Of a stretch of DNA of 64,000 bases, positions 12,201-60,170 are shown piece after piece. Within the stretch, counting starts at the first letter, position 1, and each line of letters begins with the position of its first letter. Source of the DNA: Candidatus Magasanikiibacteriota bacterium (GTDB taxonomy: Bacteria > Patescibacteriota > Patescibacteriia > Magasanikbacterales > GWA2-37-8). The notes under the pieces are model-generated. The model made no database searches and was not told where the DNA came from. It saw only the letters and a program-made list of their open reading frames with translations. A program made the translations under genes and the position numbers. Where the stretch lies: NCBI GenBank assembly GCA_016182085.1, contig JACOYB010000007.1, positions 6,381 to 70,380 on the forward strand, given 5' to 3'.

Positions 12201-14212
12201 CATCAAACCAGATCGTAATTGGCGTCAACGCCAGCGCCGTATTATTAAGTACCGATTTAGGTTTTAGCACTGATAATACCTACGACATCGGCGGAGGCAC
12301 AAGAAGTCCGCGGCATATTTTTGCGCGTAGTAATATAGCTGCCGGTACCAGCACCGCGATTGCCAGATTGACAGTGCAAGGAGATGGAACAGCCAATCCT
12401 TTTTCGGTTGTCACTTCAACCGCCGCCGCTTCTTCCATGTTTACAATTTTGACAAATGGCAGAGTTGGTATTAACACATCTTCTCCCGTTGCTATGTTAG
12501 CATTACAGGGCAGTGATGGTATTAATCCTTTGGAAATAGCTTCATCTACCGGCGCCAGCATGTTTAGAATTTTAACAAATGGAAATATTGGCATTGGAAA
12601 CAGCGCTCCTCTAGGTGATTTAGAAATAGGCAGCACAGCAGAATCGCAGGGTTTATTGGGTATTACAGCTAGCACTGCCGGAACAAGCGATATTTTCTTT
12701 AATAACAGCTCACAAAATAGAGGTGTAATTCGCTATACGCACTCCAGTGACAGTATGGCTCTTTGGAGCGCGGGAAGCGAAAGAATGAGAATTTCAAGTA
12801 CCGGTTTGGTGGGCGTTGGCACTACTACGCCATTATCCAAATTAACCGTAGTCGGTTCCGGTAATAACAGTACTACGATTGCTTTTAATACTTATAGCGC
12901 CTCCGGCACTTCCACTTTCAAAATTGATGATGCCGGCAATGCCTTTTTTGCCAACGATGGTATTTATTACGAAGCGTCCAGTTCAGTTGCTTATATAAAT
13001 AGTTTAGAAACAGGTCCGTTAAATTTTGATGATAATGCCGGCATGGTAACTTGGGTTGATATGTTAGTTTCTTCCTCAGTGGCCGGAACGCCAAACAGTT
13101 ATACGGCCGCCATAAATGATAACCCAATGTTAATGATATATGCGGAAAGCAATGGTTCGGGCGGTATTGCCAATCAAACAATTTCCATAAACACCAGCAC
13201 GACTTCTACTTATAAATTGTATATAGACGCGGGCGCCAGCACCACCGCCGGTTTGGGCGTAAATGGTTTTATAAAAGCCTCCGGGTATATTGCCGGCACC
13301 ACTACTTTAGATATTGCCGAAACTTACCCATTGGATCCGGAATGCGAGGCCAATGGAAATTGCCCTACATATGGCGAAGTCGTTTGTTCCGGAGAAGACG
13401 CATCTTCTACTGTATTTATCAAAAAATGTTCCGCCGCTTATGCCGATAATATTATCGGTGTGATTTCAGAAAACCCCGGTTTTATTTTGGGAGGTTATGA
13501 TGTCAGTAATGTAAGAATAAAAGGTTTATACCCGACTTCATTTAGGCCGGTAGCTTTGGGCGGACGCGTGCCGGTTAAAGTTTCTAACGCTAATGGCGCT
13601 ATTAAAGAAGGGGATTATCTTACTTCTTCCGCCGAGCCGGGGTTAGCCGTAAAAGCCATAGAGCCGGGCAGAGTAATAGGTATTGCTTTGCAATCTGTGG
13701 AAGAAAACGCTGAAACCGGCACTGTGATAATGTTTGTAAATCCGCATTGGTCGGCCGGCAGCTTAACCGAAGAGAGTATAGGCGCTGATTTGCCGGATTT
13801 TGCCGATGTTGTATTAGATAAATTTACTTTGGCCATAAAAAATAGTTTAAGAAAATTAGGGCTAGCAATTAAAAACGGAATTGCCACGGTAAAAGAATTG
13901 TTTGCTGACAAAGTTACTACCCAGCAGCTTTGTGTCGGTAGCACTTGTGTAAACGAACAGCAGCTGCAAGATATTTTAAATAGAACAAATGTACAGCCGG
14001 CGCCTTCCAATCCGTCGCCAGTGATACCGGAAAATGAAGCCGTTAACGCCCAAACCGCCCCCACTTCTTCCGTATCTGCGCCAGAATCCGCTGTTTCTTC
14101 TACCACAAATATAGTTGAAACTGTTGTTAACGAAACCGTTTTGGATACTGCTTCTTCCACACCCGCTGTTTCCGATACTGCTGCAGGCTCCACCACCGCC
14201 GAATCGCAATAA
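9287..14212 (+). CDS. Giant (1641 aa) anchored surface protein: 7x YVTN/LVIVD-type beta-propeller repeats, then tail-fibre-like G-[RN]-[VI]-G-I-G-T-x-S-P repeats, with a Cys-containing C-terminal domain
   Basis: N-terminal TM anchor. Seven repeats of about 43 aa (e.g. VYVSGRYAYVANYLGNTMSVVDVSNPATPVEIATVAVGANPRG). Recurring …NGRVGIGTSSPQALLSL… units. SD aggag. Confidence 0.8.
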   Translation: MFMLKSQKQKLFSVKVNAASGEKKESKFLRGFLKLSPVFVGLIMVFYYFYPAFASPPSSPYAPGETTDPSCSPGDTNCTVYPPFTTTLTGTTAITMGTSSIRFAYDSTNYSSLTVAADGALTVSSTNSATTTFINKIYFLSNAYFNTIASGTWNGSVIGIAYGGTNSSTIAANGSIVYSDGTRYNATEVGTLGYLLMSAGGGRPVWINSTTLGTGIVGSGTAGQFPYYATNGTAVVGTSTLFITPTSLVGIGTTTPTQKLAVVGNISNILDPSNTSSISQVSTVTVGTVPRGLFVSGRYLYVANYNDNTISVVDVSNSSAPVQIATTSVDTNPISTFVSGRYLYVANYNSNTVSVVDISNPSAPRKLSSVAVEAQPTTIYVSGHYAYVVNHTSNTISVVDVSNPYTPVQIATTSVGNSPRSVYVSGRYAYVANYLGNTMSVVDVSNPATPVEIATVAVGANPRGVYVSGRYAYVANFSGATVSVVDVSNPAVPVQIATAPVGTSPMAIYVSGRYAYVANFSSANISIVDVSSSSAPSHIATVPVGTNPYSIFVSGRNVYVANYGSNTISIVDIPGAEVSSLIAHSAEVGNIQSRNDILAQGNIMAGTGLMVGAGGIMSQGGLSIFASTTGSTSSIFSIDSAASSSIIKVLANGRVGIGTSSPQALLSLVNDSNTQLHLNRSGASGQTGTLRIGNQAGLISNSRGGINNGVLRNDGVLHLTRNLVYNSGDWELEAADTGGLLEVGAEGISLWTAASAAAGTKNLGIILMARDDGDLVIPAKVGIGVPYNDSTVTTPLYVQGNTSEIMRSVRTSTLTNVAPTGLRVAHNSTNSSLADGFGMVMQFAIDSPSISETAIAEIGGVRSGGDTSGALVFSTYNAGVSTEKLRITPSGLIGINSTSPIASFALQGTSTSNLFAFSSSTGANLLRLTTDGGLGFGTTPATTGAIRLENNTGIYARRADNAADIGLLSLNTSNQIVIGVNASAVLLSTDLGFSTDNTYDIGGGTRSPRHIFARSNIAAGTSTAIARLTVQGDGTANPFSVVTSTAAASSMFTILTNGRVGINTSSPVAMLALQGSDGINPLEIASSTGASMFRILTNGNIGIGNSAPLGDLEIGSTAESQGLLGITASTAGTSDIFFNNSSQNRGVIRYTHSSDSMALWSAGSERMRISSTGLVGVGTTTPLSKLTVVGSGNNSTTIAFNTYSASGTSTFKIDDAGNAFFANDGIYYEASSSVAYINSLETGPLNFDDNAGMVTWVDMLVSSSVAGTPNSYTAAINDNPMLMIYAESNGSGGIANQTISINTSTTSTYKLYIDAGASTTAGLGVNGFIKASGYIAGTTTLDIAETYPLDPECEANGNCPTYGEVVCSGEDASSTVFIKKCSAAYADNIIGVISENPGFILGGYDVSNVRIKGLYPTSFRPVALGGRVPVKVSNANGAIKEGDYLTSSAEPGLAVKAIEPGRVIGIALQSVEENAETGTVIMFVNPHWSAGSLTEESIGADLPDFADVVLDKFTLAIKNSLRKLGLAIKNGIATVKELFADKVTTQQLCVGSTCVNEQQLQDILNRTNVQPAPSNPSPVIPENEAVNAQTAPTSSVSAPESAVSSTTNIVETVVNETVLDTASSTPAVSDTAAGSTTAESQ
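10150..11010 (+). repeat. Tandem ~129-bp coding repeats (7 copies) encoding the propeller blades inside the 1641-aa gene
   Basis: Nucleotide-level near-identical units (…gtttccggtcggtacttatatgtggctaattataat…) recur every ~129 bp. Confidence 0.7.
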
Positions 14213-14222
14213 ATAGAATCTT

Positions 14223-16370
14223 ATGAGTAAGAAAAAATTTTTACAATCAAACTTGGTGTCTATTTCCGTTTTGTCGGCTCTGTTGGTTGTATTTATTATA
14301 AATAATAATCAGGTCGAAGCGGCTGTTATTAATAAAACAAGCGACCTAAATTCTTTAAGAAACGGATTGGTCGGGTGGTGGACTTTTGATGGGGCAAATG
14401 TGACCGCAACGACAGTTACCGATAAAAGCGGCGGCGGGTTGAACGGCACAAGAAACGGCACTCTTAGGGCTGCGGGAAAAATCGGCCAAGCCTTAAAATT
14501 TAACGGCACCAGCAGCGATTATATTACTCTTCCGGCTACGGGCGATTTTAATGTTAGAGGGAATATGGGGCGTCTCTCCAGTGAAAATTGGAGTTTAAGC
14601 GCTTGGTATAAAGGCACCGACCTTAGGCAGAATGTTGATTATGGCGTATCTTTAATTGGTTGGAACAGTGGCAATCTTTTTGCTTCTTTTTCAGTGCGAA
14701 GCGGCTATGCGGAATTTGCGCATTACAATGGCGGTTGGCAGCACAATATAAAATCAGCCACTTTGGTTGCAGACGGCAAATGGCACTTGATTACGTACTC
14801 CAACTACTCGGACAACACAGGCAGTCTTTATATTGACGGTATTTTAGAAATTGATAGAGCCAGCTCCACTATCGGCAGCGGAAGTTTTTTTCAGCCGTAT
14901 CATATTGGCGCTAACTTTAATAATATATATACAATTGGAACTATTGATGATGCCCGTATTTATAACCGTTCCTTGTCATCGGTAGAAGTAACACAGCTTT
15001 ACAAAACGGGCGGAGGAAAAATAAATAAAACAGATGCAATTAGAGCGCAGTTAAGAGAGGGGTTGAAAGCGCACTGGACATTTGATGGGGCAGATATGAC
15101 CCCCAATACTAGTACCGACAAAAGTGGCCAGGGAAATCATGGTACAAGAACCGGTGTAACCACCATGGTAAGAGGTAAAGTCGGGCAAGCCATGGAATTT
15201 AACGGGGCTACTGGCAGCGATATTGTTGTTACAACCAGCGCTTCTTTAAACCCCGCTACAGCTATGACAGTTTCTGCGTGGGTGAAAACCACCGATTCTA
15301 CAGGTATTATAATAAATAAAGACGACGGTGGTTCAAATAGGCAGTATTCCTTATTGACAAATTCAGGGGTACAATTTTTTGCTTTTCAATCTGGAGCCAC
15401 TTACACAAATACTGCTGCGATAGGAATTTCCGATGGCAAATGGCATTTTGTTGTTGGTACGGTAGATGTTAATGGAGACGGTAAAGCGCGAATGTATATA
15501 GATGGAGTTTTAAGAGATACGGGTGCAGTCGCAATTACAAGTATAGCTTCCAGCAGTGTGCCTGCTACCATTGGCGACAGACCGACAAACGCCTTTCCTT
15601 TGAGCGGTACAATTGATGATGCTCGAATTTATAATCGCGCCTTATCCCATGCCGAAGCGGCTGAACTATATAAAATGGCAAATAATAAAACCAGTAAAAC
15701 AGACACAGTGAGAGTGCAGCCTAAAAACAGTTTGGTTGGGCATTGGACTTTTGATGGCGGGAATATGACATCCGTTACGAGTACCGACACAAGCGGCCAG
15801 GGAAATCATGGAACAAGCACGATAATAAGCGCGACTAGAGGAAAAATAGGACAAGGTCTAGATTTTAAAGATACCAATTATTTTATAAACCTGGGCGATC
15901 CGTCATCTTTAAGGTTAACAACTCAGTTTACGGTTTCTTCTTGGGTTAAGGTTCGCGCTCATAAAAATTATAATCAAGTTTTTATGAAAAACGACGCTAA
16001 TTCGGATTTTTATGGCCTTTTGTTGGATGCAAACGGAAAATTAACCGGACAAGTTGGCAATGGCGGTTCTAATGTTACGCTAGTGGGCAATACGGTCTTA
16101 TCAGCAGGCAAGTGGTATCATGTAGCCGCAACCTATAACTCTGCTTTAGCATCCGGCAATCTAAAATTATATATAAATGGCGTTGAAGATACGTATGTGG
16201 GCAACGGTAATTTTTCTAGCGGCGTAGGGGACACAGCCGGCGGTTATACCAATATAGCTAAAGATCCGGTGAATGGAAGAAATTTTGATGGGTTACTTGA
16301 TGATGTCCGCGTTTATAGCCGTCCTCTGGCTCCGGCCGAAATCATGGCTTTGTATAAAACGGGTAAATAA
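14223..16370 (+). CDS. Secreted protein with three LamG-like (concanavalin A-like lectin/glucanase) jelly-roll domains
   Basis: Signal peptide. Three ~230-aa modules each with W(T)FDG…D(K/T)SG(Q)GNHGT…DDARIYNR(A/S)LS…LYKTG, as in the LamG_3-type domain family. Confidence 0.75.
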   Translation: MSKKKFLQSNLVSISVLSALLVVFIINNNQVEAAVINKTSDLNSLRNGLVGWWTFDGANVTATTVTDKSGGGLNGTRNGTLRAAGKIGQALKFNGTSSDYITLPATGDFNVRGNMGRLSSENWSLSAWYKGTDLRQNVDYGVSLIGWNSGNLFASFSVRSGYAEFAHYNGGWQHNIKSATLVADGKWHLITYSNYSDNTGSLYIDGILEIDRASSTIGSGSFFQPYHIGANFNNIYTIGTIDDARIYNRSLSSVEVTQLYKTGGGKINKTDAIRAQLREGLKAHWTFDGADMTPNTSTDKSGQGNHGTRTGVTTMVRGKVGQAMEFNGATGSDIVVTTSASLNPATAMTVSAWVKTTDSTGIIINKDDGGSNRQYSLLTNSGVQFFAFQSGATYTNTAAIGISDGKWHFVVGTVDVNGDGKARMYIDGVLRDTGAVAITSIASSSVPATIGDRPTNAFPLSGTIDDARIYNRALSHAEAAELYKMANNKTSKTDTVRVQPKNSLVGHWTFDGGNMTSVTSTDTSGQGNHGTSTIISATRGKIGQGLDFKDTNYFINLGDPSSLRLTTQFTVSSWVKVRAHKNYNQVFMKNDANSDFYGLLLDANGKLTGQVGNGGSNVTLVGNTVLSAGKWYHVAATYNSALASGNLKLYINGVEDTYVGNGNFSSGVGDTAGGYTNIAKDPVNGRNFDGLLDDVRVYSRPLAPAEIMALYKTGK

Positions 16371-27636: not shown

Positions 27637-28224
27637 TTATTTATTTTCGTACCTCCATGTGATTAAATCGTTTGGTTTAAGGGTATAATTTGAGATACCA
27701 ACCTTTGCTTCCTCGTTATTTATATAAAATGTCCAGTAGAAACCGGTAGACGGACTATTTTTCTGGCTATTGATTTCTTCTACGAAATGCCCCAGGCCGG
27801 AAAATACTTTGGTAGAAAACGAGATTTCGTTGCTTTCTCGTAATGCAACCATTGCTTCATAAGCGGTAGCGCCTGGTTTTACAGTTGGATTGTACTCCCT
27901 ATCTTCAATTTTGAATGTAACGGGTATAGTTTCGGTTGAGTTGGTTGGAGGTGGTGGGGACAAAGGGGAGGTGTTGGAGGCGGTATTTGTTCCTGCGGAG
28001 CTAGTTACAGTTTTTTCGTTACTATCGCTAGTTTTATTTTTTAGCACCGCCGGTTTTAAATCTGGTTCAGTTTGAAGGGCGGCGGCAGTGTTTGTGGGGG
28101 CAGTATATAAAGGCGGGGAGGCGTTATTATTATCTGGATTAAGGAATAAGTAGGTTGCGGCAAAAACCGAAATAAAAATCAGAAAAATTAATAGTCGGTG
28201 AAGGAGTTTGTTTGAATTGGGCAT
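27637..28224 (-). CDS. DUF4430-like secreted protein (beta-domain fold related to intrinsic factor/transcobalamin C-terminal domain), N-terminally anchored
   Basis: N-terminal TM, Pro/Thr/Ser linker, then VTFKIEDREYNPTVKPGATAYEAMVALRESNEISFSTKVFSGLGHFVEEINSQ…FYWTFYINNEEAKVGISNYTLKPNDLITWRY, as in DUF4430. Confidence 0.65.
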   Translation of the reverse strand: MPNSNKLLHRLLIFLIFISVFAATYLFLNPDNNNASPPLYTAPTNTAAALQTEPDLKPAVLKNKTSDSNEKTVTSSAGTNTASNTSPLSPPPPTNSTETIPVTFKIEDREYNPTVKPGATAYEAMVALRESNEISFSTKVFSGLGHFVEEINSQKNSPSTGFYWTFYINNEEAKVGISNYTLKPNDLITWRYENK

Positions 28225-28244: not shown

Positions 28245-28455
28245 GCTAACAAAAAAATCTTTGCCGAGCGGGAAAGATTCAAAAATATATGGGTTTTTGT
28301 TTCCTGCTCGGGACTAACCCCATATTTATGGGGCCTATATCTGAAGATCGGACTTCTCGCCCAGGGCGAGTTTACCGTTGCGGCACAGTGGAGGAATCAA
28401 ACCTCACTTCCACAGATATATTTTAGTTAAATTGTAAAGTTAGACTAGCACCTAA
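28245..28455 (-). promoter_or_regulatory. Probable cobalamin (AdoCbl) riboswitch with intrinsic-terminator expression platform, upstream of the DUF4430 gene
   Basis: Minus-strand RNA reads AGGUGCU…GGAAGUGAGGUUUGAUUCCUCCACUGUGCCGCAACGGUAAAC… This matches my recollection of the conserved GGUG…AAUCC / CCCGCAACUGUAA core. It is followed by hairpins and a CCGAGC…GCUCGG stem plus a U7 run. Confidence 0.5.
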
Positions 28456-33990: not shown

Positions 33991-36549
33991 TTAAAGACCA
34001 GCTTCACTCAATTCGGTTTTGCCTTCTTTTATTACTACGCCCAGTTGGGCCCTTTCGGCGATTTCCGCTTCCACGATTTCTCTTGGCCGTCCGTATTTAA
34101 GCCTGGACAGCTCTTTAATCGCAGCGGCCAGTTGTTTGTTGCCTGGACGTGGGGGATAGGTGAACATATTAAACGGTTTAGCGGCGGTGTTGTCAATCAG
34201 CAGTTTGGTATAAGCTGTGTATTGTTCCACGTTTACCAGATCGTAGGCGCTAAATACTGGCGCGAATTCTTTGGCCAGAATCTCCGCGTCTTCCACGCCA
34301 ATGCGGAATGATACAAGTGTGCCCGCGTTACCCAAGACCGCGTCACGCACCGTGGTTTTGCCTTTGTTATCTTCCAGTTGTTTCATGTACTGGTGGGCAA
34401 TGATAAGTTCCAAACGGTATTTTCTGGCTTCGGATAAAATGGTGGCAATGGAGTCGGTAATAAAGTTTTGGAACTCGTCAATATATAAATAAAAATCATG
34501 GCGCTGATCTTCGGGAAGCGAAGCGCGTTCCAGGGCGGCCATTTGCAGTTTGGATACGATAATAAGACCTAAGAGGTTTGAGTTTATTTCACCAACCAAA
34601 CCCTTGGCCAAATTAACCAAGAGAATTTTTTTCTTGTCCATGACCTCGCGGAAATTAAAACCCGAATGCGTTTGGCCGATAATATTACGGATCATGGCGT
34701 TTTCTACAAAACGGCCCACTTTGGAAATAAGGTACCCCAACATTTCCGATTTATGAAAGTCCGAAGTTTTGGCCATTTCTTTATCCCAGAAGGCAAGTAC
34801 CATCGGGTCGGTAAGTTTCTTCTTCCACTCTTTTACAAATTCGTCATCGGTAAACATGCGGGGGATTTCGGCGATCGTGCCCGGATTTTCGGTATCTGCC
34901 ATAAGGGTAAGCATCACGTTGCGCATGTTGTGTTCAAACATCGGGCCAATCATGGACGGATCAGTAACCAGTTTATAGAAAATAGAAATCATTTCCTGGG
35001 TTGCGAAATCTTTTTGCTCTTCGCTCTGTACGTCTATCATGTTTAAGCCGATCGGGCGTTCCACGTCTGCCGGATTAAAATAAATCACGTCTTCGGCTCG
35101 TTCTTTGGGCACATGCTGTAATACATAATCTACAAAATCTCCGTGCGGGTCTATGACGCATACGCCCTCGCCGTTAATAATATCTTGCACTGCCAAATTT
35201 TGGATAAATACGGATTTACCGCTGCCGGATTTACCGATGGTGTACAAATGACGGCGGCGATCTTCGCGTTTCATACGCACAATAGTTTCTTCGCCTCTGT
35301 ATACCGCCCGGCCCAAAATAATACCTTCTTTTGGCATATTAGTGGGCGGAGGGGCTTTGCGCGCGCCGAGCCAGTTGATATTAGGCGTTTCGGTGCTGGG
35401 AATTGGCAGGTGCCAAAAACTGGCCATTTCTTCGGTATTGAAAACCATATAATGGTTTTCTTTAATACTTCTATAGATATAATCCTGAATAAGAGTAGTG
35501 GGACGGCGGGGGACAACAGCGCTGAGAGTATTGCCGTAGCGATACAAATTATATTGACTGAAAGCATTTATAATATTTTCCAAATTGAGCACGGCTTTTT
35601 CCTTGCTGTTTGCCGAGCTTATCAAACGAATCGTGGTTTCCACGCCGCCGCGGCTGATTTTTTCTTCCATGTTTTTAACCATTTCTTCTTCCATCTGGGT
35701 AAGCTGATATTTTGGTTCAAAACTTTGTTGAGTATCTTTTTTCTTTTTTGGGAAAATATATTTGCCCCAGCCGCTGAGGAATCGTCGCAATTCGCCGCGT
35801 TTGGCCACGTCTTCAAATTTTTCGCCTTTTTTGATATCGCGAATAATATGCACGCCTTCCTTGCGCCAATGGCTGGAAGCAGGACGGATAATGTACTGAA
35901 TAATCGCGCCTTCGTCTTCGGCGATTTTGCTGAGCGGGTTGAGCAGGGCAACCAGGGGGTCGCTGTCCAGTTTTTTATATGTTTTAAGCGGGAATGAAGA
36001 TTTGTGTTTGAGCCATAAATACGCGCCCACGATATGGCTTTGCGGCTTGAACGGATTATAGTCCGTTTCTTCGGTGATTTCCGCGTGCGGGTATTGGGCA
36101 TGAACTTGCTGCTCCACAAACCCTTTTATTTTATCGGGGACAATAATATAAAAAGAAATTTTACTATCCTTAACAACGATTTCAAACGCCACATGGTCGT
36201 TGCGTCCGCGCAGCCAGGTCATGATGCCTTTTTCTTTTTTTAATCCGGCAATGGCAGAAAATAAAGTTTCGGAAACGGCGATTTCCTCGCGCACATGATT
36301 GATATTATCTTCGGCGCCGGCGGATTCCGGTTTGTCGCCCTTTTTTTCTTTGGGAACTTTTATGAGCAGTACGGTTTTATGGAATGCCTTGCTTTGGCGT
36401 CCTTTGGCCGTAACCACGGCCTTTAAAATATAAAGAAGAGAAATAAAAAATATTACGCCGAGAGCCGGCGGCAGAATATACAAAAAAAGACTATTTTCCA
36501 GCAAGCTGTTTATAAGTTCTATGATTGTATTTACAATTTCGTAGAACAC
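33991..36549 (-). CDS. TraD/VirD4/TrwB-like type IV coupling-protein-family ATPase with N-terminal membrane anchor
   Basis: Two N-terminal TM helices. Walker A GKSGSGKS. Walker B-like hydrophobic stretch then DE (…IDEFQNF…). Size and layout of conjugative coupling proteins. Confidence 0.7.
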   Translation of the reverse strand: MFYEIVNTIIELINSLLENSLFLYILPPALGVIFFISLLYILKAVVTAKGRQSKAFHKTVLLIKVPKEKKGDKPESAGAEDNINHVREEIAVSETLFSAIAGLKKEKGIMTWLRGRNDHVAFEIVVKDSKISFYIIVPDKIKGFVEQQVHAQYPHAEITEETDYNPFKPQSHIVGAYLWLKHKSSFPLKTYKKLDSDPLVALLNPLSKIAEDEGAIIQYIIRPASSHWRKEGVHIIRDIKKGEKFEDVAKRGELRRFLSGWGKYIFPKKKKDTQQSFEPKYQLTQMEEEMVKNMEEKISRGGVETTIRLISSANSKEKAVLNLENIINAFSQYNLYRYGNTLSAVVPRRPTTLIQDYIYRSIKENHYMVFNTEEMASFWHLPIPSTETPNINWLGARKAPPPTNMPKEGIILGRAVYRGEETIVRMKREDRRRHLYTIGKSGSGKSVFIQNLAVQDIINGEGVCVIDPHGDFVDYVLQHVPKERAEDVIYFNPADVERPIGLNMIDVQSEEQKDFATQEMISIFYKLVTDPSMIGPMFEHNMRNVMLTLMADTENPGTIAEIPRMFTDDEFVKEWKKKLTDPMVLAFWDKEMAKTSDFHKSEMLGYLISKVGRFVENAMIRNIIGQTHSGFNFREVMDKKKILLVNLAKGLVGEINSNLLGLIIVSKLQMAALERASLPEDQRHDFYLYIDEFQNFITDSIATILSEARKYRLELIIAHQYMKQLEDNKGKTTVRDAVLGNAGTLVSFRIGVEDAEILAKEFAPVFSAYDLVNVEQYTAYTKLLIDNTAAKPFNMFTYPPRPGNKQLAAAIKELSRLKYGRPREIVEAEIAERAQLGVVIKEGKTELSEAGL

Positions 36550-36553
36550 ATTT

Positions 36554-37045
36554 CTATTCTTTCTTTTTTAAGGCGATAATCTTGTCGGTTTTTATTTTAG
36601 CTTCTTGTTCTAAAAAAAAGCGATTTATGCCAGGCAGCATGCGCAGCCAATCTAGAATCAAACCCAGGATTTTTTTTACTTTGATATGCGTGCCTTTTAG
36701 GAGTTCTTGAATTTGGGCGGCGGTTTGTTCGCCCTTTAATTTGAATTCTTGTTTGGCAACGGGGGACAATCGCTGGTATGAATCATTCAAGTCTTCTTCC
36801 ATGATTTTTTCTATTTTTACCACGATTTCATTTTTAAGCGGCAAGGGGATAGCTGGGATTTTTTTCATTGCCGGCCTTGGTTTTTGCGGGCCTGCGGTTT
36901 CGGCAGTATGTTTTTGTTCTTCTGTTTCGGTTTCCGTTTCCGGCGCGGCTTCTTTTTCCAATTGCAAATCACGCTCCTCGCGAGCAATTTTAACTTCATC
37001 CGAAGGTTCTATTCGGGGTTTTTCTTCTAAAGGTTTAAATGCCAT
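36554..37045 (-). CDS. Charged hypothetical protein co-transcribed upstream of the TraD-like ATPase gene
   Basis: 163 aa, Glu/Lys-rich. The downstream gene starts 5 nt after its stop on the same strand. Confidence 0.5.
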   Translation of the reverse strand: MAFKPLEEKPRIEPSDEVKIAREERDLQLEKEAAPETETETEEQKHTAETAGPQKPRPAMKKIPAIPLPLKNEIVVKIEKIMEEDLNDSYQRLSPVAKQEFKLKGEQTAAQIQELLKGTHIKVKKILGLILDWLRMLPGINRFFLEQEAKIKTDKIIALKKKE

Positions 37046-38053: not shown

Positions 38054-38070
38054 ATCAATTGTATAAACAA

Positions 38071-38098
38071 AAAACCACCGTTATTGAGGTGGTTTTTT
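38071..38098. terminator. Bidirectional rho-independent terminator
   Basis: aaaaccacc-gttattga-ggtggtttttt, with A-run and T-run on either side. Confidence 0.65.
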
Positions 38099-38106
38099 GT
38101 TCCAAT

Positions 38107-38160
38107 AAATTTCCAAGAAGTTAGAAATTTAATCAGTTGGCCACATGCGTTGTGGCCACT
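38107..38160. repeat. Conserved 3'-UTR hairpin element copy 1 (AAATTTCCAAGAAGTTAGAAATTT + TGGCCACA-tgcg-TGTGGCCA stem)
   Basis: About 80% identical to 40327-40379. Contains aaatttc/gaaattt and tggccaca/tgtggcca inverted repeats. Lies between the terminator and the stop of the minus-strand gene. Confidence 0.6.
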
Positions 38161-38228
38161 CACGTTCGCGCGCCTTGTGGCGGCGAATCTCCTTGCTCAC
38201 GTTGGGTAGGCGAGCGTAACAGGAGTGT

Positions 38229-39014
38229 TTATGGAAGGATCTGAGAACCTTCCCAGATGTCGTTATCTGGGTTGAAGTCATTCACGTGGGGTCGGGCTTC
38301 CAGACGCCAGTATGTGGTGGTTCCTTGGGGGAATACCTCTGGAGAAAAGAAGTACTGAATGTTGCCGATGTTGCTTGCAAGCGGCGTCGAATACGTGAAG
38401 GCGATTCCTCCGTAGATCCAAGGATTACCTGGATTGGTCCGATAACTAATCGTGGCCACACCTGGCTTTGTCAACTTGAAATCAATGTTGACAACTCGGT
38501 TATTGTTCCAGAGGAGGTAGATAGCGGTCCCACTGCGCACGAAGCGCAGCGGCGACATGTCCACGTACTGGGTGCAGGTCACGAGACTAGTCCCTCGGTC
38601 AAACATCAGCGACGGCGGAGAGGTGTTCTGGTCCAGGTCCACCACGCTAACATCGAGCCAGAAGTGGTCGTGGCATTGCACGCTGCACCAGCGGTCGCCA
38701 GGAATGAGATCCAGGGAGCATGACCACGACAGTTCCGATTGCTCCGTGCCGATGCAGTCGCCCCCCTCGCACCAGCAGTACCACGGGGTGTTCCGGCCGG
38801 CCCACTCGTAGGGCTGGCAGTAGGACGTGGGCTCTTCGGGCTCCACGCACACGCCATCGAGGCACACGCTAGTACCGGGACACTCCCCATCGGTCATGCA
38901 GACGCCGTAGTGTTCGTTGACGATCACTTCGGTATCAGTGCAGGCGGCCAGCGCGGTTATGGCATACAGGCAAAAAGCGGTCAGCAGCTTGTTCATTGTC
39001 GTGTTCTCCATCAA
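38229..39014 (-). CDS. GC-rich Cys-rich lipoprotein (probable true start MNKLL…LAAC about 18 nt inside the ORF)
   Basis: Lipobox ITALAAC. N-terminal Cys-rich module (CMTDGECPGTSVCLDGVC…). C-terminal beta-rich domain. Codon GC far above the backbone. Confidence 0.55.
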   Translation of the reverse strand: MMENTTMNKLLTAFCLYAITALAACTDTEVIVNEHYGVCMTDGECPGTSVCLDGVCVEPEEPTSYCQPYEWAGRNTPWYCWCEGGDCIGTEQSELSWSCSLDLIPGDRWCSVQCHDHFWLDVSVVDLDQNTSPPSLMFDRGTSLVTCTQYVDMSPLRFVRSGTAIYLLWNNNRVVNIDFKLTKPGVATISYRTNPGNPWIYGGIAFTYSTPLASNIGNIQYFFSPEVFPQGTTTYWRLEARPHVNDFNPDNDIWEGSQILP

Positions 39015-39136
39015 GGTGTTAAGACCCCTTAGGCGCCGAAAGCTTACGCTTCGACAGGGCCAATAAGAATCTCAACATTGTAAAAGAACAACATACTTTA
39101 GCATAAAAATGCCATTCTGTCAATGTAGTATAGAAG

Positions 39137-39166
39137 TGTTTAAAAATAAAAAACCCGATAGTATCA
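39137..39166. terminator. Bidirectional terminator followed by a diverged copy of the hairpin element (gccatgaatcgtcatggc, 39171-39188)
   Basis: aaaaaacccgata-gt-atcaggttttttat. The downstream hairpin shares the gccaNNN-cg-NNNtggc form with the two other copies. Confidence 0.5.
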
Positions 39167-39216
39167 GGTTTTTTATGCTTGCCATGAATCGTCATGGCGC
39201 CGTCCGCAACGCGGAT

Positions 39217-40266
39217 TTACATTTGACTATATTGTTCTTGTTCGGCCTTGGCTTCTTCCGGATCTTTGCAGTTGCCATAGTGGCAGATGTCGTCCGCGTT
39301 GCAACAATCACTATCTTCTTCGCAACCCGGCATGCACACACTTTCATCGCACACCGCCTCGCAACCACAGTCGCTATTTTTCGCGCATGTTGGCGGGAAG
39401 CACTTCTCGTAGTTACAGATTTCGTTGCCGGGGCAGTGAGAACTGTCTAGGCAATTTCCATCTTCAATTTCTTCACGAGAGTGACAGGTATCTTCGTAGT
39501 AGAAATCACCCTCGCAGCATAGTATGGGACGACCGGGGCTATAGGTGCTGCAACTATGCACTTCGTTACAAATTTCGCCGCAATCACAATCGGAATCAAA
39601 GTTGCATTCCGATTCCTGGCAGTACCCTTCTTTTACCATAAGGCCGCTGAATCTGCAGAAGTATCCAACCGGACAGTCACTGTCAGCGCAACAGCCAGGC
39701 TGGTGATCACAGCGATGGTTGATGCAATGAACTGCGCAACCTCCACCGCAATCGGCATCTGCATCGCATTCTGACTCGGTGCAGGTACCGCTAATTTCAT
39801 CACTGCTCTTATCACAAAATTCATCCGGCAGACAATCCGCATTGGCACAGCAGGAATCCGACTTGTGGCACTCGTCGTCCAAGCAGTCGTAGCCGCAACC
39901 GCAATCTTCGGCGGTGGCGCAGGTATGCTGGGTAGCATACTCGCCCCTGGAATTGTCCTCCGTACCTTCATCTAGCAAACATTTGCCACTCGCGCAGACA
40001 CTGTCCGACGGACAGTCATCATCCTTGGTGCATGTTGCAATTGCCGCGGCATTTATTGTCAAGGTGCGCGCCTTGTTTTTCTGGGCAACCGGTACTTGGC
40101 ACTGGTCGGCCGGTGAATTGTTGGATTCAACCGGAGCGCTTGGCCAAACCAGGTACGCAATTGCGAAAAACTGAATAAGCGCGATAAAAGGAAATACCCA
40201 CCCTTTCTTGTTGAACTGCATACTTCCTCCGTATAGGTAGAATACGCTAGCAAAATTGTTTGTCAA
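39217..40266 (-). CDS. GC-rich secreted protein built of tandem Cys/Asp-rich repeats (DxDC-x3-5-C-x3-5-C units); likely start MQFNKKGW…
   Basis: Signal/TM FPFIALIQFFAIAYLVWPSAP. At least ten repeats such as DDDCPSDSVCASGKC, AEDCGCGYDCLDDEC, DSDCPVGYFC, DSDCDCGEICNE, NSDCGCEAVCDESVC. Confidence 0.55.
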   Translation of the reverse strand: MTNNFASVFYLYGGSMQFNKKGWVFPFIALIQFFAIAYLVWPSAPVESNNSPADQCQVPVAQKNKARTLTINAAAIATCTKDDDCPSDSVCASGKCLLDEGTEDNSRGEYATQHTCATAEDCGCGYDCLDDECHKSDSCCANADCLPDEFCDKSSDEISGTCTESECDADADCGGGCAVHCINHRCDHQPGCCADSDCPVGYFCRFSGLMVKEGYCQESECNFDSDCDCGEICNEVHSCSTYSPGRPILCCEGDFYYEDTCHSREEIEDGNCLDSSHCPGNEICNYEKCFPPTCAKNSDCGCEAVCDESVCMPGCEEDSDCCNADDICHYGNCKDPEEAKAEQEQYSQM

Positions 40267-40289
40267 GAAAAATTAAAATTATAAAACAA

Positions 40290-40318
40290 AAAACCGCCTG
40301 AATTTTAGGCGGTTTTTT
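40290..40318. terminator. Bidirectional rho-independent terminator
   Basis: aaaaccgcc-tgaattttag-ggcggtttttt. Confidence 0.65.
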
Positions 40319-40326
40319 GTTTCTCA

Positions 40327-40379
40327 AAATTTCCAAAAGTTTTAGAAATTTAGTCAATGCCACATATCGTAGTGGCGAC
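40327..40379. repeat. Conserved 3'-UTR hairpin element copy 2
   Basis: aaatttccaaaagttttagaaatttagtcaatgccacatatcgtagtggcgac is a direct repeat of 38107-38160, about 2.2 kb away. Confidence 0.6.
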
Positions 40380-40433
40380 GCCTTGACTTGCGCCAAGGAC
40401 TCGCACAGACCCGTGAGAGGGGTCGGTGAGAGG

Positions 40434-41192
40434 TCAGGTAGGTGGAGGAGCGAAGATCGTGAGATGTTCCCGCCCAACATTTTCGTAGACCGACTGTTCG
40501 GCATCCAGTGGCGACTGGCTCCAGCGGAAACCATTCACCTTGGCGTCGATCGCGATCCCACTTGGCATCACACTGGCGCTGCAGTTGGTGCAGAACAGAC
40601 GGATGTCCTCGCCACCCACGTTTCCGCTGGGCGCAAACGGCCCACTCCAGCTGTAGAGGCGGGAATACCACTGACTCGTGATGTCACCGCCGGCAATCTC
40701 CGTAAGTGGCGCGGGTTGGCCGTTGATCATCATCCGGAACGTAGGCATGAAGTTGGTCGCGCTGGCCGACGAACGCGTGCCGTAGATCTCGTACTGAATG
40801 TACATGAGCTGCGGATTGCAACCCTCCGTACCCCCGCCGACTGGTACGGCGTTGAAGTGGCGGATTTCCACTTCGGCGGCCGGCATCTTGAGCGCGGTGC
40901 TCGACGTCGGGAAAGTGAGCTCCACCTTGCAGAGGCGGTCGAGGGCGCGCTGGTAGCACACCCCGGTATCTGCCAGGCACTCGCTGCCATCGGGGCACTG
41001 GGGGCCGCCGGGATCAGCGCAGGTCACGGGCACCTCCACTTCCCGCACGCAGGCCTCGCCTTCACGCTCGGTATCGGCCGGGCAAGTGGCGGGGCCAGCA
41101 TCGGCAAACTGCATGTTGACCCCATCACCACAGCCGGTGGCCATGATGAAGAGGGTGGTCGTGATCGCGATGATGAGCCGCATGTTGGGCAT
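40434..41192 (-). CDS. GC-rich Cys-rich lipoprotein
   Basis: Lipobox LFIMATGCGD. N-terminal Cys-rich module (CPADTEREGEACV…CADPGGPQCPDGSECLADTGVC). The C-terminal domain is loosely similar to that of 38229-39014. Confidence 0.55.
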   Translation of the reverse strand: MPNMRLIIAITTTLFIMATGCGDGVNMQFADAGPATCPADTEREGEACVREVEVPVTCADPGGPQCPDGSECLADTGVCYQRALDRLCKVELTFPTSSTALKMPAAEVEIRHFNAVPVGGGTEGCNPQLMYIQYEIYGTRSSASATNFMPTFRMMINGQPAPLTEIAGGDITSQWYSRLYSWSGPFAPSGNVGGEDIRLFCTNCSASVMPSGIAIDAKVNGFRWSQSPLDAEQSVYENVGREHLTIFAPPPT

Positions 41193-41381
41193 CGTAACGC
41201 TCCTTTGGTTTCATTGTCTTGAGATTCAGACCCCACTGACACCCCGAACATTTGTTCAGAGCAAGGGCCAGTAAGGGGCTGAATCTATTAAAAAGAACTG
41301 TATAATCTAACAAAAGACCTACTATTTGTCAATGGTAGCAAATGTATTTTGGCTAAAATAAGAGATTTTATGACCCTAAGG

Positions 41382-43996: not shown

Positions 43997-44503
43997 TTAA
44001 AGTTCTAAATCTAGTGCTTCGATATGATCGCTAATTTTACTACCGTTCAATTCAGGATTACGTTGCCATTTAAATTTAGAACACCTTCCTTCGAATTTAA
44101 TATTAGGGCAAGAATAATTTTCGGTATAAACTGAATATCCCCGTACCTCTGTATTTTCTAGCCTAGAGCAATTTTCTAATATTCCGGTATAGTCCTTTAT
44201 GTTTGGTATTGTCGCTACGCAACTGCCCTGGCACTGGTTTGAATATTTACAAGGCATGTTTTGATCGGCGTATGGAGGGATGCATCTGGCCTCAATAGTA
44301 AAATCCCAGTAGTTTGGTTCCATCCAGTAGCCACCAATTGAGTTGCACTGTCTTTTATTTTTTTCAACTTTATGTTTTGCAAAATATTCTTCAATATTTG
44401 CGCCGTATAATTCTTTGATCCCAGGGTAAAAAAGAATAATAACCGGTAAACAGGCTGCTATGAGAATTGCTACACTTAAAAATTTTGGTACCTGTCTAAA
44501 CAT
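43997..44503 (-). CDS. Membrane-anchored Cys-rich hypothetical protein
   Basis: N-terminal signal-anchor helix. Ten Cys in the extracytoplasmic part. Confidence 0.45.
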
Positions 44504-57108: not shown

Positions 57109-57615
57109 TTACGAAATCACTTCGCAGATACTCGCCGGTAGAAGCATCGTACCAACAACTTCGGTAGAACTGCCCATGTAGTGCGAGCAAGCGTGAGGGC
57201 TGTGAAGCGCCAAGGCCATCAGAGCATAGGTCCTACTGAGACAGAAACAGCTCAGAAAAGGATCAAACGCGCTTGCCACCACCTCAATTTCCACTCCGAT
57301 CCACGCTTCACGGATTCCAGGCGGATCTTCTCCTGGCAGGGCGGTTACGACCTTGACTTTCTTCACTTCCGAGCAGTTGTTTTTGGACAGATAGATGGGA
57401 GAAGCACCCCACCCGAAAGTGTCCTTCCAGTGGTTGAAGACTCCGGCGGGCCTCTGTTTACCAATAGCATCCAAGAAGTCACGGCGTGCTACGATAAAGC
57501 AGTTGTCATCCTCTTGGGCCCAGAGGATCATGCCCACCAAAGAATTACACATGTCCTTGGTACAATCCCGATCTTGGGGATGGGGAGCCACGGTAATGCA
57601 AATTGCTTTGTGCAT
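57109..57615 (-). CDS. GC-rich hypothetical protein (169 aa; start MHKAICITV preceded by AAGGAGA SD)
   Basis: Strong SD gtaaggagagttgtcATG. Codon GC well above the backbone. No motif recognised. Confidence 0.5.
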   Translation of the reverse strand: MHKAICITVAPHPQDRDCTKDMCNSLVGMILWAQEDDNCFIVARRDFLDAIGKQRPAGVFNHWKDTFGWGASPIYLSKNNCSEVKKVKVVTALPGEDPPGIREAWIGVEIEVVASAFDPFLSCFCLSRTYALMALALHSPHACSHYMGSSTEVVGTMLLPASICEVIS

Positions 57616-57755: not shown

Positions 57756-57829
57756 GGGTCGGTAGTTCAACTGGTTAGAGCACTGCCCTGTCACGGCAGA
57801 AGTTGCGGGTTCGAGTCCCGTCCGACCCG
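57756..57829 (+). tRNA. tRNA-Asp (anticodon GUC)
   Basis: Acceptor GGGTCGG/CCGACCC, D arm GTTC-AACTGGTTA-GAGC, anticodon stem CTGCC/GGCAG with loop CTGTCAC, T arm GCGGG-TTCGAGT-CCCGT, discriminator G. Confidence 0.85.
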
Positions 57830-57832
57830 CGA

Positions 57833-57860
57833 AAAAAGAAGGCGAAAGCCTTCTTTTTGC
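57833..57860 (+). terminator. Rho-independent terminator after tRNA-Asp
   Basis: aaaaagaaggc-gaaa-gccttcttttt. Confidence 0.55.
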
Positions 57861-57996
57861 GTGGGCGGAAGCGAGCAAATAGTTTTGCTCACGTCGGGGC
57901 GAGAACGCCGGAGCGATGTCGCACGACGCAGGTGGGCGAGTGCGACCGCGAGGAGGTGGCTAACCCGAACGAATGGAAGTGAGTGAGAGGTGAAGC

Positions 57997-58015
57997 CGAG
58001 TCCCGTCCGACCCGC
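57997..58015 (+). repeat. 19-nt direct repeat of the tRNA-Asp 3' end (cgagtcccgtccgacccgc), att-site-like
   Basis: Exact copy of 57812-57830, about 165 bp downstream. The intervening DNA is GC-rich and non-coding. Confidence 0.6.
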
Positions 58016-58491: not shown

Positions 58492-58827
58492 ATGTCGGAA
58501 ATTGAAGGGCTCATTGAGTCTTTTATGAAAGATGTGCGGACTAGCGCTTTGTCAGTGATGGCGGTAAGCATCAACTCAAAAGATGTGGAGAAGTTGTGCG
58601 AAAAGCCACGCCTGGCTTTCCCCAGTATTCTTCAGCGCTTTGAAAGGCTGAAGCCCGCAGCTAACGGAATAGGGCTTCGTATTGAAGAAGGTCATGTAGT
58701 GTTGCTGCGTCGGTTGGGAGCATGCCTCGGCGCTGCTGTGCCAGGTTATGGACTCAAGGAGCGAGGAAAGTGGCTCGGTTGGGCTCGCCAAATCCTTCAG
58801 CATATAACCCCTCGCCCCAAGAAGTAA
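58492..58827 (+). CDS. GC-rich hypothetical protein (111 aa)
   Basis: SD gagggggtttcaATG. No motif. Confidence 0.45.
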   Translation: MSEIEGLIESFMKDVRTSALSVMAVSINSKDVEKLCEKPRLAFPSILQRFERLKPAANGIGLRIEEGHVVLLRRLGACLGAAVPGYGLKERGKWLGWARQILQHITPRPKK

Positions 58828-58989: not shown

Positions 58990-59307
58990 ATGAAAATTTT
59001 CGTTCGGCGTTGTCCGACTTTTGGCAACATTGCCTCTGGAATTCTGGATGTGCTGCGCGGTATGTGCCTCGAAGCTGATGAGCGTTCGATCATTCCCGCT
59101 CCGGAAGACAGCATCTGCAATGTGGATGCTGCTGGCGATGGCGGGTACATGGTGTCTGGCGAGGAGATGTTCAACGTGTTGTATGGCGACCGTGAGGCGG
59201 ACGATTTGATGTGGGAGCTTGCCAGGAGATTCGGTCAGTGGCGCAAGCGTATGTTTGTCTTCCATTTCGATGACGTTGCAACGCTGCCACTGCTGCCTCC
59301 CGAGTAG
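58990..59307 (+). CDS. GC-rich acidic hypothetical protein (105 aa)
   Basis: Canonical SD aaaggaggtttgcaATG. Followed by a palindromic site and a terminator (59430-59459). Confidence 0.5.
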   Translation: MKIFVRRCPTFGNIASGILDVLRGMCLEADERSIIPAPEDSICNVDAAGDGGYMVSGEEMFNVLYGDREADDLMWELARRFGQWRKRMFVFHFDDVATLPLLPPE

Positions 59308-59651: not shown

Positions 59652-60170
59652 CTAGATGCTCAGTCCGGTCGGACTTGTGTCGTTGGGACTGGAACGGTTG
59701 TGTCCGGCGGGTTTGTAGTGAGGTCGGAGGTCGCGTCCGTTGGGCTTGTTGACTTGCGGCGAGCACATGCACATGGGCAGCGGAGTGGCCTGCGGTTCTT
59801 GTTGCATGATGAGCTTGTCCGGGTCATCCAGGTTCACGTAGCCGCGCGCGACAGGTGTGCCGCGCCAGGAACAAGATCCACCCTGGCTACAAATGCGGGC
59901 CTTGTAGATGATCATGGCCTCGCAGATGATACCGGACTCGGTGCAAGAGCAGTTGTTGTTCCGTACCGTCTGCAGGCCCTCCTCCGAGATCAGGAAGCCA
60001 GTAGGAGCGTTGTCCTGTTTGGGTACCGTCGGCTGGTTGACGACGCTCGTCGCCAGGGGGCTGTTGCTGTTGAAGCAGTAGCGGTAGCCGAAGATCAGAC
60101 CCAGAACCAGGAGCATGCAGATCGCGAGACCGCGAGTACTCAGACCGGGACTTGCCAGTTTTTTCTCCAT
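59652..60170 (-). CDS. GC-rich membrane-anchored Cys-rich secreted protein (172 aa)
   Basis: SD gagggggaaaaacagtcATG. N-terminal TM LAICMLLVLGLIFGY. Twelve Cys (CSCTESGIICEAM…CSQGGSCSW…CMCSP). Confidence 0.5.
   Translation of the reverse strand: MEKKLASPGLSTRGLAICMLLVLGLIFGYRYCFNSNSPLATSVVNQPTVPKQDNAPTGFLISEEGLQTVRNNNCSCTESGIICEAMIIYKARICSQGGSCSWRGTPVARGYVNLDDPDKLIMQQEPQATPLPMCMCSPQVNKPNGRDLRPHYKPAGHNRSSPNDTSPTGLSI

Follow-up and report, generated by a model that had tools for sequence, protein, structure and literature searches.

Three single-gene units between cysS and corA

The stretch of DNA analysed here (hereafter the window) comprises 64,000 nucleotides of contig JACOYB010000007.1 from a Candidatus Magasanikiibacteriota bacterium and carries, between cysS and corA, three genes on the minus strand, termed A (38229-38996), B (39217-40221) and C (40434-41192), which together occupy 38.2-41.2 kb. 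Each of them is a single-gene unit built on one plan, with its own promoter, coding sequence, multi-hairpin 3' untranslated region (UTR) and bidirectional terminator. As far as can be judged from sequence, the locus is a flexible surface-protein islet with unusual homologous structured UTR modules on unrelated, lastingly GC-rich genes, and the segment would represent this genome's version of an accessory-gene hotspot between cysS and corA in the Candidatus Magasanikbacteria clade. A first-pass annotation, made from the letters of the window, had described a GC-rich segment with three co-oriented genes, and both points are borne out: the open reading frame (ORF) coordinates place all three genes on the same strand, and the three 1-kb bins at 38-41 kb contain 49-55% GC versus 42.8% for the whole window, with the GC content at third codon positions (GC3) raised as well. 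The intergenic spacers around A, B and C are AT-rich.

For comparison, related genomes were used (labelled L001 and so on), which are independent assemblies from NCBI, JGI, ENA and Logan reached through homologues of A, B and C; L006, L063/L073, L115 and L116 belong to one organism, Magasanikbacteria RIFOXYD1_FULL_40_23. In every comparison of the A, B and C frames with their orthologues the largest pairwise differences fell on the third codon position, indicating that the minus-strand frames are real genes. A ribosome-binding site (RBS) precedes each coding sequence, and the predicted promoters are near-consensus and of sigma-70 type (TTGACA-16/17-TAnnnT). The promoter of unit C (41304..41332, minus strand; TTGACA-17-TAGATT with a TG upstream) is homologous to that of unit A (39095..39123, minus strand; TTGACA-17-TAAAGT, likewise with a TG upstream) and to the promoters of the corresponding slots in L005, L010, L006 and L117; unit B is preceded by TTGACA-16-TATTCT (40239..40266, minus strand). 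Downstream of the genes, all three predicted intrinsic, bidirectional terminators have an A-run before the stem and a T-run after it. The terminator after C (40283..40323) forms 17 pairs followed by a T-run, its 19-nt arms (40284-40322) being 95% complementary; the one after B (39146..39176) has 15-nt arms of 93% complementarity, and the one shared by A and the convergent corA gene (38066..38101) has 14-nt arms of 100%. These terminators had initially been called perfect without exception, which holds for the bidirectional layout of all three and for strictly perfect arms in one of the three.

Gene A encodes 255 amino acids (aa) with 14 Cys (GC 57%, GC3 0.72). Its signal peptide ends, by direct reading, in ...ITALAAC, a good match to a lipobox (LAAC), and the lipobox Cys is kept in the A family. 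A Cys/Trp-rich N-terminal region is followed by an Fn3-like C-terminal domain, whose predicted fold, a seven-stranded beta-sandwich superposable on FN3 domains, is that of the fibronectin type III family. Within 5.8 billion clusters A has ten close relatives; an A profile run against 1.84 billion representatives gave 16 matches and added few distant relatives. One A homologue sits on a Magasanikbacteria contig. The distant relatives match DUF7107-type repeats in their N-terminal Cys motif and fn3-containing surface proteins in their C-terminal domain. A itself scores 18 bits against DUF7107, below the cut-off of 24.6.

Gene B (334 aa, 47 Cys, GC 51%, GC3 0.54) begins with an N-terminal hydrophobic (signal) anchor and contains, by direct reading, about 10 knot-like units of the type C-x3-(D/S)DC-x4-5-C-x4-C; all of its Cys residues are invariant across 12 homologues. 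The repeat units noticed at first sight are accordingly present, their count being about 10 and not clearly above ten. Gene C encodes 252 aa (249 from the second ATG) with 11 Cys (GC 63%, GC3 0.77), and its signal peptide ends, again by direct reading, in ...IMATGC, in which the -3 position is atypical for the lipobox [LVI][ASTVI][GAS]C. A and C are termed putative lipoproteins. Only two homologues of C were found among 5.8 billion proteins, one of which is the window's own NCBI entry (Candidatus Magasanikbacteria). Neither B nor C has a curated family match in Pfam or NCBIfam, the Pfam matches of B being sub-threshold only; a B profile gave chance-level matches only to PDB sequences, and B and C are both without a solved structure by sequence. 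Exact-sequence look-ups of A, C and P0005 returned no record. Structure prediction, which had been proposed for all three proteins, brought out the Fn3-like domain of A and gave an unusable AlphaFold2 (AF2) model for C (predicted local distance difference test, pLDDT, 32).

The motif CPxxSxCxxGxC is common to A, B and C. A and C are otherwise unrelated (BLASTP E 0.67; profile-profile hhalign probability 0.6%), and since both comparisons were empty the idea that they are diverged paralogues was rejected. The products had been described as extremely Cys-rich throughout and as an exported effector, adhesin or toxin-like repertoire. The former applies to B, with 47 Cys in 334 aa, and A and C are only moderately Cys-rich; as to the latter, all three products would be exported, an exported, adhesin-like character being supported for A, with its Fn3-like end, and plausible for B, and nothing suggests a toxin. 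The comparison with Myxococcus-type repeats and Dickkopf modules that had been recommended yielded sub-threshold similarity, namely 10.7 bits for A against TIGR04201 (Myxo_Cys_RPT) and 14.5 bits for B against Dickkopf_N, each at a cut-off of 25; all matches to TIGR04201, DUF7107, Dickkopf_N and EB lie below the curated thresholds. In another lineage of the Candidate Phyla Radiation (CPR), strain-variable Cys-rich extracellular proteins have been described and an attachment role proposed for them (PMC4736985). The proteins studied here resemble these and the Myxococcus-type repeat proteins in being exported, strain-variable and disulfide-rich, and they differ in size, with 250-335 aa and two putative lipoproteins here versus about 1,650 aa for the Cys-rich proteins of Peribacteria (PMC4736985). 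Beside cysS the window contains a further ORF (43997-44503, minus strand; 168 aa) with a signal peptide, 9 Cys and a GC3 of 0.31, a Cys-rich exported protein of native composition, in contrast to A and C.

Replacement of units in related genomes

Gene B is syntenic in L005-L009, L117, L118 and L120, where the order PilM-CysRS-...-B-...-CorA-type IV coupling protein (T4CP)-like ATPase is found. L005, about 94% identical to the window, shows the same C-B-A order. In L010 the order is CysRS, promoter, leader, C, tail and B, and in L001 it is CysRS, promoter, leader, A and tail, where leader and tail denote the structured 5' and 3' elements described in the next section. In L006 and L117 the slot is taken by three different genes, c1, c2 and c3, all of them small and GC-rich, of which c2 carries the leader of A and C, and L118 has two other GC-rich genes on the opposite strand; the window contains no relative of any of these. 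What lies between cysS and corA thus differs among L001, L006/L117, L010, L118 and L120. Next to corA, all relatives have an 852-aa DUF8128/TraD-VirD4-like coupling-protein ATPase together with a 163-aa partner (33991-37045, minus strand, in the window), near which no other conjugation genes lie; the pair may take part in the uptake or export of DNA.

Unit A itself varies between strains. In a sliding comparison of the window with L005 the identity amounts to 93-99% on both sides and falls to 31-82% from about 39143 to about 38000. This interval coincides exactly with the A unit from promoter to terminator, reaching from just after the B terminator to the 3' end of corA. Third codon positions differ by 44% in A and by about 12% in B and C, and the L005 allele of A has a different, c1-like leader and a different signal peptide. 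The alignment hence shows a whole A unit replaced between strains with 93-99% identical flanks, and the sharpness of the drop suggests allele replacement by homologous recombination in the conserved flanks, for which no recombinase would be needed. For three of the relatives' hotspot genes the public gene calls are antisense (L005 5010-5837 and 7715-8335, L006 9323-9751, all minus strand). Public calls for such GC-rich genes are often placed on the wrong strand. Protein collections consequently lack or misrepresent C and A of L005 and c2 of L006, for which long antisense ORFs were called, and GC-rich proteins of this kind are under-represented in the databases.

The composition changes at the units are sharp and many homologues lie on short contigs, as would be expected if GC-rich pieces of another organism had been stitched into an AT-rich contig during assembly or binning. 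The probability of such an artefact is next to nil: the same junctions between AT-rich and GC-rich DNA occur in the independent assemblies L001, L002, L005-L010, L063/L073 and L115-L120, which rules out a chimeric assembly, and the promoters, RBSs and terminators fit the gene boundaries.

A search for an integrase or recombinase elsewhere on the contig had been suggested. Pfam analysis of about 40 proteins of the 64-kb window, a few ORFs lying outside the scan, revealed no integrase, transposase or reverse transcriptase, and the precomputed Pfam labels of the 10-20 kb syntenic flanks in relatives contain no recombinase. A diversity-generating retroelement was likewise rejected, as the window has neither a reverse transcriptase domain nor a template repeat/variable repeat (TR/VR)-like direct repeat with A, B or C. 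A locus of phase-variable lipoproteins as in Mycoplasma (vsp/vpma) was considered as well, in which the conserved 5' regions would serve as inversion sites for a recombinase and expression would switch from gene to gene. The clustering of lipoprotein genes with conserved 5' UTRs (in A and C, not in B), their divergent mature proteins and the exchange of the leader and signal peptide of A as a block between the window and L005 all recall vsp of M. bovis and vpma of M. agalactiae, which also come from small-genome, host-associated bacteria (PMC2268961). The vpma system, however, relies on Xer1 and a single promoter (PMC2268961), and the neighbouring tyrosine recombinase, the single promoter, the inversions and the conserved signal peptide of the Mycoplasma loci (PMC2268961) all have no counterpart here. 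Instead, the genes are co-oriented with promoters of their own, A and C differ in their signal peptides, and neither an adjacent recombinase nor an inverted leader copy was found, which makes a system of this type highly improbable.

Flexible islets and replacement hotspots between core genes are well known, for instance surface-antigen and capsule loci exchanged by homologous recombination. They fit the locus most closely with regard to the fixed position between core genes, the strain-variable gene sets, the atypical composition and the sharp identity breakpoints; the differences are the small size of the islet (1-3 kb), its self-contained genes, the homologous structured UTR modules and the lasting GC-richness. 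Of the features that characterize a horizontally acquired islet, an atypical composition (A and C) and replacement at a fixed position are present, and a donor lineage was not found.

Structured elements in the untranslated regions

A leader of about 65 nt precedes three unrelated genes, A, C and c2, and begins about 15-20 nt past the predicted transcription start. In unit C (41222..41286, minus strand) it forms a three-tier stem composed of P1 (10 bp), P2 (5 bp) and an apical P3, with a minimum free energy (MFE) of -36.1 kcal/mol (z -6.1); the leader of A (39016..39078, minus strand) reaches -26.8 kcal/mol (z -4.1). Scored with the covariance model R1, the leaders reach 63-75 bits in sense orientation, with 65.5 bits for A and 74.6 bits (16.4 antisense) for C, and no antisense score exceeds 25 bits. 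In an alignment of eight leader sequences 93% of the cells are paired, versus 18-58% in controls with slid partners, and compensatory changes were observed in P1 (G-C to C-G in C versus the other copies) and in P3. Together with the promoter and the conserved motif GTTCTTTTACAATG, which lies near the predicted transcription start of A (39076-39089, minus strand), the leader makes up a 5' flank common to A and C, a feature absent from the first-pass annotation. Each genome contains two leader-bearing units, and a search of 157 kb of related sequence with R1 disclosed no leader copy beyond those of the hotspot. A conserved upstream ORF in the leader was considered and rejected, since the ATG of ACAATG is absent in L001 and C; a frame shift between A and the C gene of L010, seen by direct reading, contradicts it as well. 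Another 5' leader, distinguished by the hairpin GGGCTT(T)GA(A)G...CT(T)CAAG(G)CCC, is present in relatives (L005 7225-7441, L006 8505-8678 and L117 4556-4709). It precedes both c1 and the L005 allele of A, from which it appears that leaders as well as coding regions are shuffled among units.

On the 3' side, A and C share a tail of about 110 nt, which consists of the hairpins H1 and H2 and the terminator. H1 has the consensus GCCACGA-CGAT-TCGTGGC, with a 7-bp stem and a 4-5-nt loop, and follows A (38139..38157; GGCCACA-ACGCA-TGTGGCC), B (39181..39198; GCCATGA-CGAT-TCATGGC, a compensated variant of GCCACGA...TCGTGGC) and C (40359..40376; GCCAC...GTGGC), all on the minus strand, as well as c2 and c3. 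H2 (AAATTTCTAA...TTRGAAATTT) follows A, C and c1; it is an AU-rich hairpin or palindrome after A (38107..38130, minus strand) and an AU-rich 10-11-bp hairpin after C (40327..40351, minus strand), where the palindrome reads AAATTTCTAA...TTGGAAATTT. The two copies of the 3' element had been estimated to be about 80% identical, which agrees well with the 79% found for 38107-38160 versus 40327-40379; a wider block of 114 nt including the terminator is 74% identical between the A and C tails, and 200 shuffles reach at most 60%. The AAATTTC palindrome pattern occurs at two sites only in 64 kb, after A and after C, the chance expectation being 0.04. The copy after B had been reported as a diverged third one at 39171-39188. 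Its hairpin is indeed present, at 39181-39198, and the H2 palindrome with AAATTTC is missing from the B tail. A small hairpin (39202..39216, minus strand; TCCGC-GTT-GCGGA) stands right after the B stop codon and is kept in the B orthologues, including those of L005 and L006.

The pattern of substitutions points to selection on the transcribed strand. In H1 four of the seven pairs have changed on both sides, in H2 one C-G pair has been swapped for A-U, and the 3' hairpin of c1, GGTCGATAC-GCAA-GTATCGGCC in L006 versus GGCGGACAT-GCAA-ATGTCCGCC in L117, has undergone three double compensations around an invariant GNRA-type GCAA loop. Eight of the nine imperfections of H2 are G-U wobbles on the sense strand that would be mismatches on the antisense strand, and the 3' tails fold better than shuffled sequence (z -5 to -8.4). 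The compensatory changes, the sense-only wobbles and the folding taken together argue for selected mRNA structure and not for DNA recombination sites or generic terminators. The comparisons thus show that leader, H1 and H2 are conserved across genomes and unrelated genes and behave as folded sense-strand RNA would. H2 as a double-stranded DNA operator or as a recombination core is disfavoured by the consistent G-U asymmetry.

With respect to distribution, nothing in 37.9-41.5 kb reached the gathering threshold of Rfam, the sub-threshold matches being terminator look-alikes, and neither the rest of the 64-kb window nor about 157 kb of related sequence outside the hotspot yielded further copies of the elements. 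A scan of a genome contig collection for the H1 pattern produced about 100 chance matches in high-GC genomes and one relevant genome, RIFOXYD1_FULL_40_23, whose organism was also the only match of a leader scan of metagenomes; scans of viral contigs and plasmids were empty. When the relatives were searched for the 3' element, as had been advised, copies recurred at the same hotspot between cysS and corA beside other GC-rich genes, so that the elements are not the generic terminators without conservation elsewhere that they might have been. Some terminators in relatives are followed by another element of 65-95 nt, TTTTCTCTTTGC...AAGAGAAAACA...TGAGTGA..GCGAAGGCGATTCCTT, located at L005 5966-6032 and at about 9830-9925 and 11620-11715 in L006; it is absent at about 40280 in the window, which explains an indel relative to L005.

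The first-pass annotation had compared the locus to a cassette array, in which a unit of gene plus 3' element is duplicated or recruited repeatedly. In support of a cassette-like unit, unrelated coding sequences lie within homologous flanks here and the same motifs surround other genes in relatives. A truly integron-like or other site-specific system, with each gene and its 3' element forming a mobile cassette and the hairpin or palindrome acting like attC, is nevertheless very unlikely. The likeness to integron arrays consists in co-oriented unrelated genes, each followed by a related imperfect inverted repeat, in cargo that is often of foreign composition and in strain-variable slot content; moreover, c1 of L006 and L117 sits in an array-like manner between a promoter and the leader of the next gene without a terminator. 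The IntI, attI, Pc and attC components are, however, not matched: no recombinase was found in the window or in the syntenic flanks of relatives, and every unit has its own promoter and terminator, so that the cassettes are not promoterless. Furthermore, H1 and H2 are simple, fully paired RNA-type hairpins that have neither RYYYAAC/GTTRRRY boxes nor extrahelical bases, a TCTAAC/GTTAGA pair being present in the copy after A only and not kept in the others, and where their pairing is imperfect, it is by G-U wobbles on the sense strand. No copy of the elements turned up beyond the hotspot, the replacement of A spans the whole unit including the promoter with breakpoints beside B and corA, and B is a resident gene and not a recruited one.

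The strand-specific conservation could also reflect regulation, with the leader as a ligand- or protein-binding cis-regulator of A and C (and of c2 in relatives) and the tail of about 110 nt as the source of a small RNA derived from the 3' UTR. For such a role speak the conservation of the leader beyond the needs of pairing (23 invariant columns across three unrelated genes), a specific U-G wobble of H2 that is kept in most copies, the stronger conservation of the tail compared with the preceding coding regions and the position of the leader in L006 and L117, where it lies inside an operon-like c1-c2 spacer and not at a transcript start. We consider it rather unlikely, since the leader, a single long hairpin whose apex varies, lacks a riboswitch-like multi-stem junction or pocket, the RBS lies outside the hairpin (direct reading), Rfam contains no match, there are two copies per genome, and both elements belong to transcripts that are predicted from sequence. 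Stem-loops that stabilise mRNA are known from both transcript ends, as 5' hairpins of the ompA type and as 3' terminal or repetitive extragenic palindromic (REP)-like hairpins. The elements described here likewise place stable hairpins close to the 5' end and, one after another, ahead of the terminator, and share the strand-specific conservation and the compensatory changes; they differ in being unrelated in sequence to described elements, with no Rfam match, and in a leader that starts 15-20 nt downstream, which is not ideal for end protection, and a stabilising role is a predicted one.

Composition and interpretation of the locus

The GC3 values of the three genes (0.54-0.77) exceed those of the neighbouring genes (0.31-0.49), and the GC content of the segment therefore did not turn out to match the genome once measured. 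A similar picture emerges from the amino acids: the fraction of lysine among lysine and arginine, K/(K+R), is 0.20-0.25 in A and C versus 0.47-0.78 in the backbone, and B, with 0.68, is native-like. The data support a foreign codon and amino-acid composition of A and C; the island as a whole had been regarded as foreign, which does not extend to B, a native-like syntenic resident with a GC3 of 0.40-0.54 across genomes. In five other genomes the hotspot genes have a GC3 of 0.61-0.90 (0.90 in the A gene of L002), compared with 0.29-0.44 for the cysS/corA backbone. B would be a long-resident core gene, and A and C would be accessory, using codons and amino acids as a GC-rich lineage does. Most of the gene transfer that has been detected in Patescibacteria runs from one member of the group to another (PMC12455944).

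The GC-richness seems older than simple amelioration allows. At fourfold degenerate sites L006 and L117 differ by 0.43 in c1, 0.53 in c2 and 0.37 in c3, which is within or close to the backbone range of 0.41-0.57, and the GC content at these sites (GC4) is still 0.49-0.89 in c1-c3 versus 0.29-0.45 in the backbone. Likewise, 0.53 of the fourfold sites of A differ between the window and L001, and GC4 has remained at 0.66-0.74. Polarised third-position changes in C comprise 17 from GC to AT and 4 from AT to GC, which speaks for a foreign origin; per third-position GC site the GC-to-AT change is 0.10 in C and 0.20 in the backbone (Fisher p = 0.005), with equal AT-to-GC change, figures that are suggestive only, given the few sites, the different outgroups for cassettes and backbone and the bias of parsimony polarisation.

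These observations raise the question whether the genes are old residents of the Magasanikbacteria pangenome, whose GC-rich codons are actively kept by GC-biased gene conversion or by selection, for example for mRNA stability or against AU-rich sites at which very highly expressed transcripts could be cleaved or terminated. We regard this as possible, though not probable. The lasting GC4 of c1-c3 and A, the GC3 of 0.90 in L002, the halved GC-to-AT rate of C, the lack of a GC-rich donor in very large databases and the apparent recombination at the locus would all be accounted for. Yet the net flux in C still runs from GC to AT, B as the oldest resident is near the backbone composition, and the strong preference of arginine over lysine suggests long residence in a GC-rich genome; the counts are small, and with gene conversion a rise in GC would also be expected in the AT-rich promoters, in H2 and in the terminators, except under functional constraint.

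Six more GC-rich genes (GC3 0.52-0.76) were found in the window at 12-584, 4999-5916, 58492-58827 and 58990-59307 on the plus strand and at 57109-57615 and 59652-60170 on the minus strand. They belong to no Pfam family, except that 12-584 has a sub-threshold match to Reprolysin_5 around HExxH, and 4999-5916 and 59652-60170 have signal-peptide-like N-termini. Where their flanks are visible, they appear to have promoter-like and terminator-like sequences of their own, and none has a leader, H1 or H2. GC-rich orphans of this kind thus seem to be a general feature of the genome. Several of them lie just downstream of a site (57756-58015) at which the 3' 19 nt of tRNA-Asp (57812-57830) are exactly repeated at 57997-58015, with a 166-nt insert of 59% GC between them; the arrangement resembles a scar left at the attachment site by an integrated element.

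Taking composition, replacement and UTR structure together, we consider it fairly probable that the locus is a strain-variable hotspot at which adhesin-like surface proteins are encoded in autonomous, RNA-stabilised expression units and these units are exchanged by homologous recombination. Leader and tail would act as 5' and 3' modules for mRNA stabilisation, processing or insulation and would allow strong expression of each gene, whatever its neighbours. Turnover of the units would proceed via DNA uptake followed by homologous recombination in the conserved flanking genes and in the UTR modules, with no dedicated site-specific recombinase involved. Biologically, the turnover would serve to vary surface or adhesion proteins, the organism itself probably living attached to other cells.

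Several points weigh against this interpretation. Promoters, transcript ends and RNA function are all predicted, and recombination is read off an identity pattern. Since the leader and H2 are found only at the hotspot and H1 only at hotspot genes, the term general expression module overstates their reach, and the shared elements could equally be remnants of local duplication. C belongs to no known family and its AF2 model (pLDDT 32) is of no use. No GC-rich donor was detected among very large protein databases, viral contigs or plasmids, and all inspected contigs with close relatives have an AT-rich, Magasanikbacteria/CPR-like backbone. Finally, c1-c3 have diverged like the backbone and are GC-rich all the same, which recent transfer followed by amelioration explains poorly.

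A bolder version of the hotspot interpretation, which we offer tentatively and hold to be somewhat unlikely, would have surface genes kept GC-rich in the long term and travelling as 'plug-in' units whose RNA modules double as homology arms. If true, such units would be a counterpart to cassette systems, working by recombination and without an integrase, by which the cell surface is renewed, and their GC-richness would be kept by mRNA selection or GC-biased gene conversion instead of being the fading trace of an import.

CPR bacteria (Patescibacteria) are thought to live attached to other cells, and the locus may serve as a compact example of how a surface repertoire evolves in them, in that small exported, disulfide-rich proteins appear to be turned over between strains at a fixed hotspot between cysS and corA. 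Its genes are marked by two previously undescribed, structure-supported RNA motifs, the leader and the 3' tail, which could be used to find more units in metagenomes. The lasting high GC3 inside genomes of roughly 40% GC offers a testable case of genes that depart from the genomic base composition.

The remainder of the window consists of the housekeeping genes of a small genome, among them SecA, SecDF, CysRS, the tau subunit of DNA polymerase III, PPDK, IF3, SmpB/tmRNA, type IV pilus genes and CorA. At 28280-28438 on the minus strand an adenosylcobalamin (AdoCbl, B12) riboswitch exceeds the Rfam threshold; the genes downstream of it, namely a DUF4430 gene (27637-28224), one of 746 aa and a DUF6580 gene, probably make up an operon for cobalamin uptake. 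The ORF at 9287-14212 (plus strand, 1641 aa) contains seven in-frame tandem repeats of 129 nt (43 aa) at 10166-11023, and the ORF that follows (14223-16370) has repeats as well, each about 670-700 nt long; both probably encode large repetitive surface proteins.

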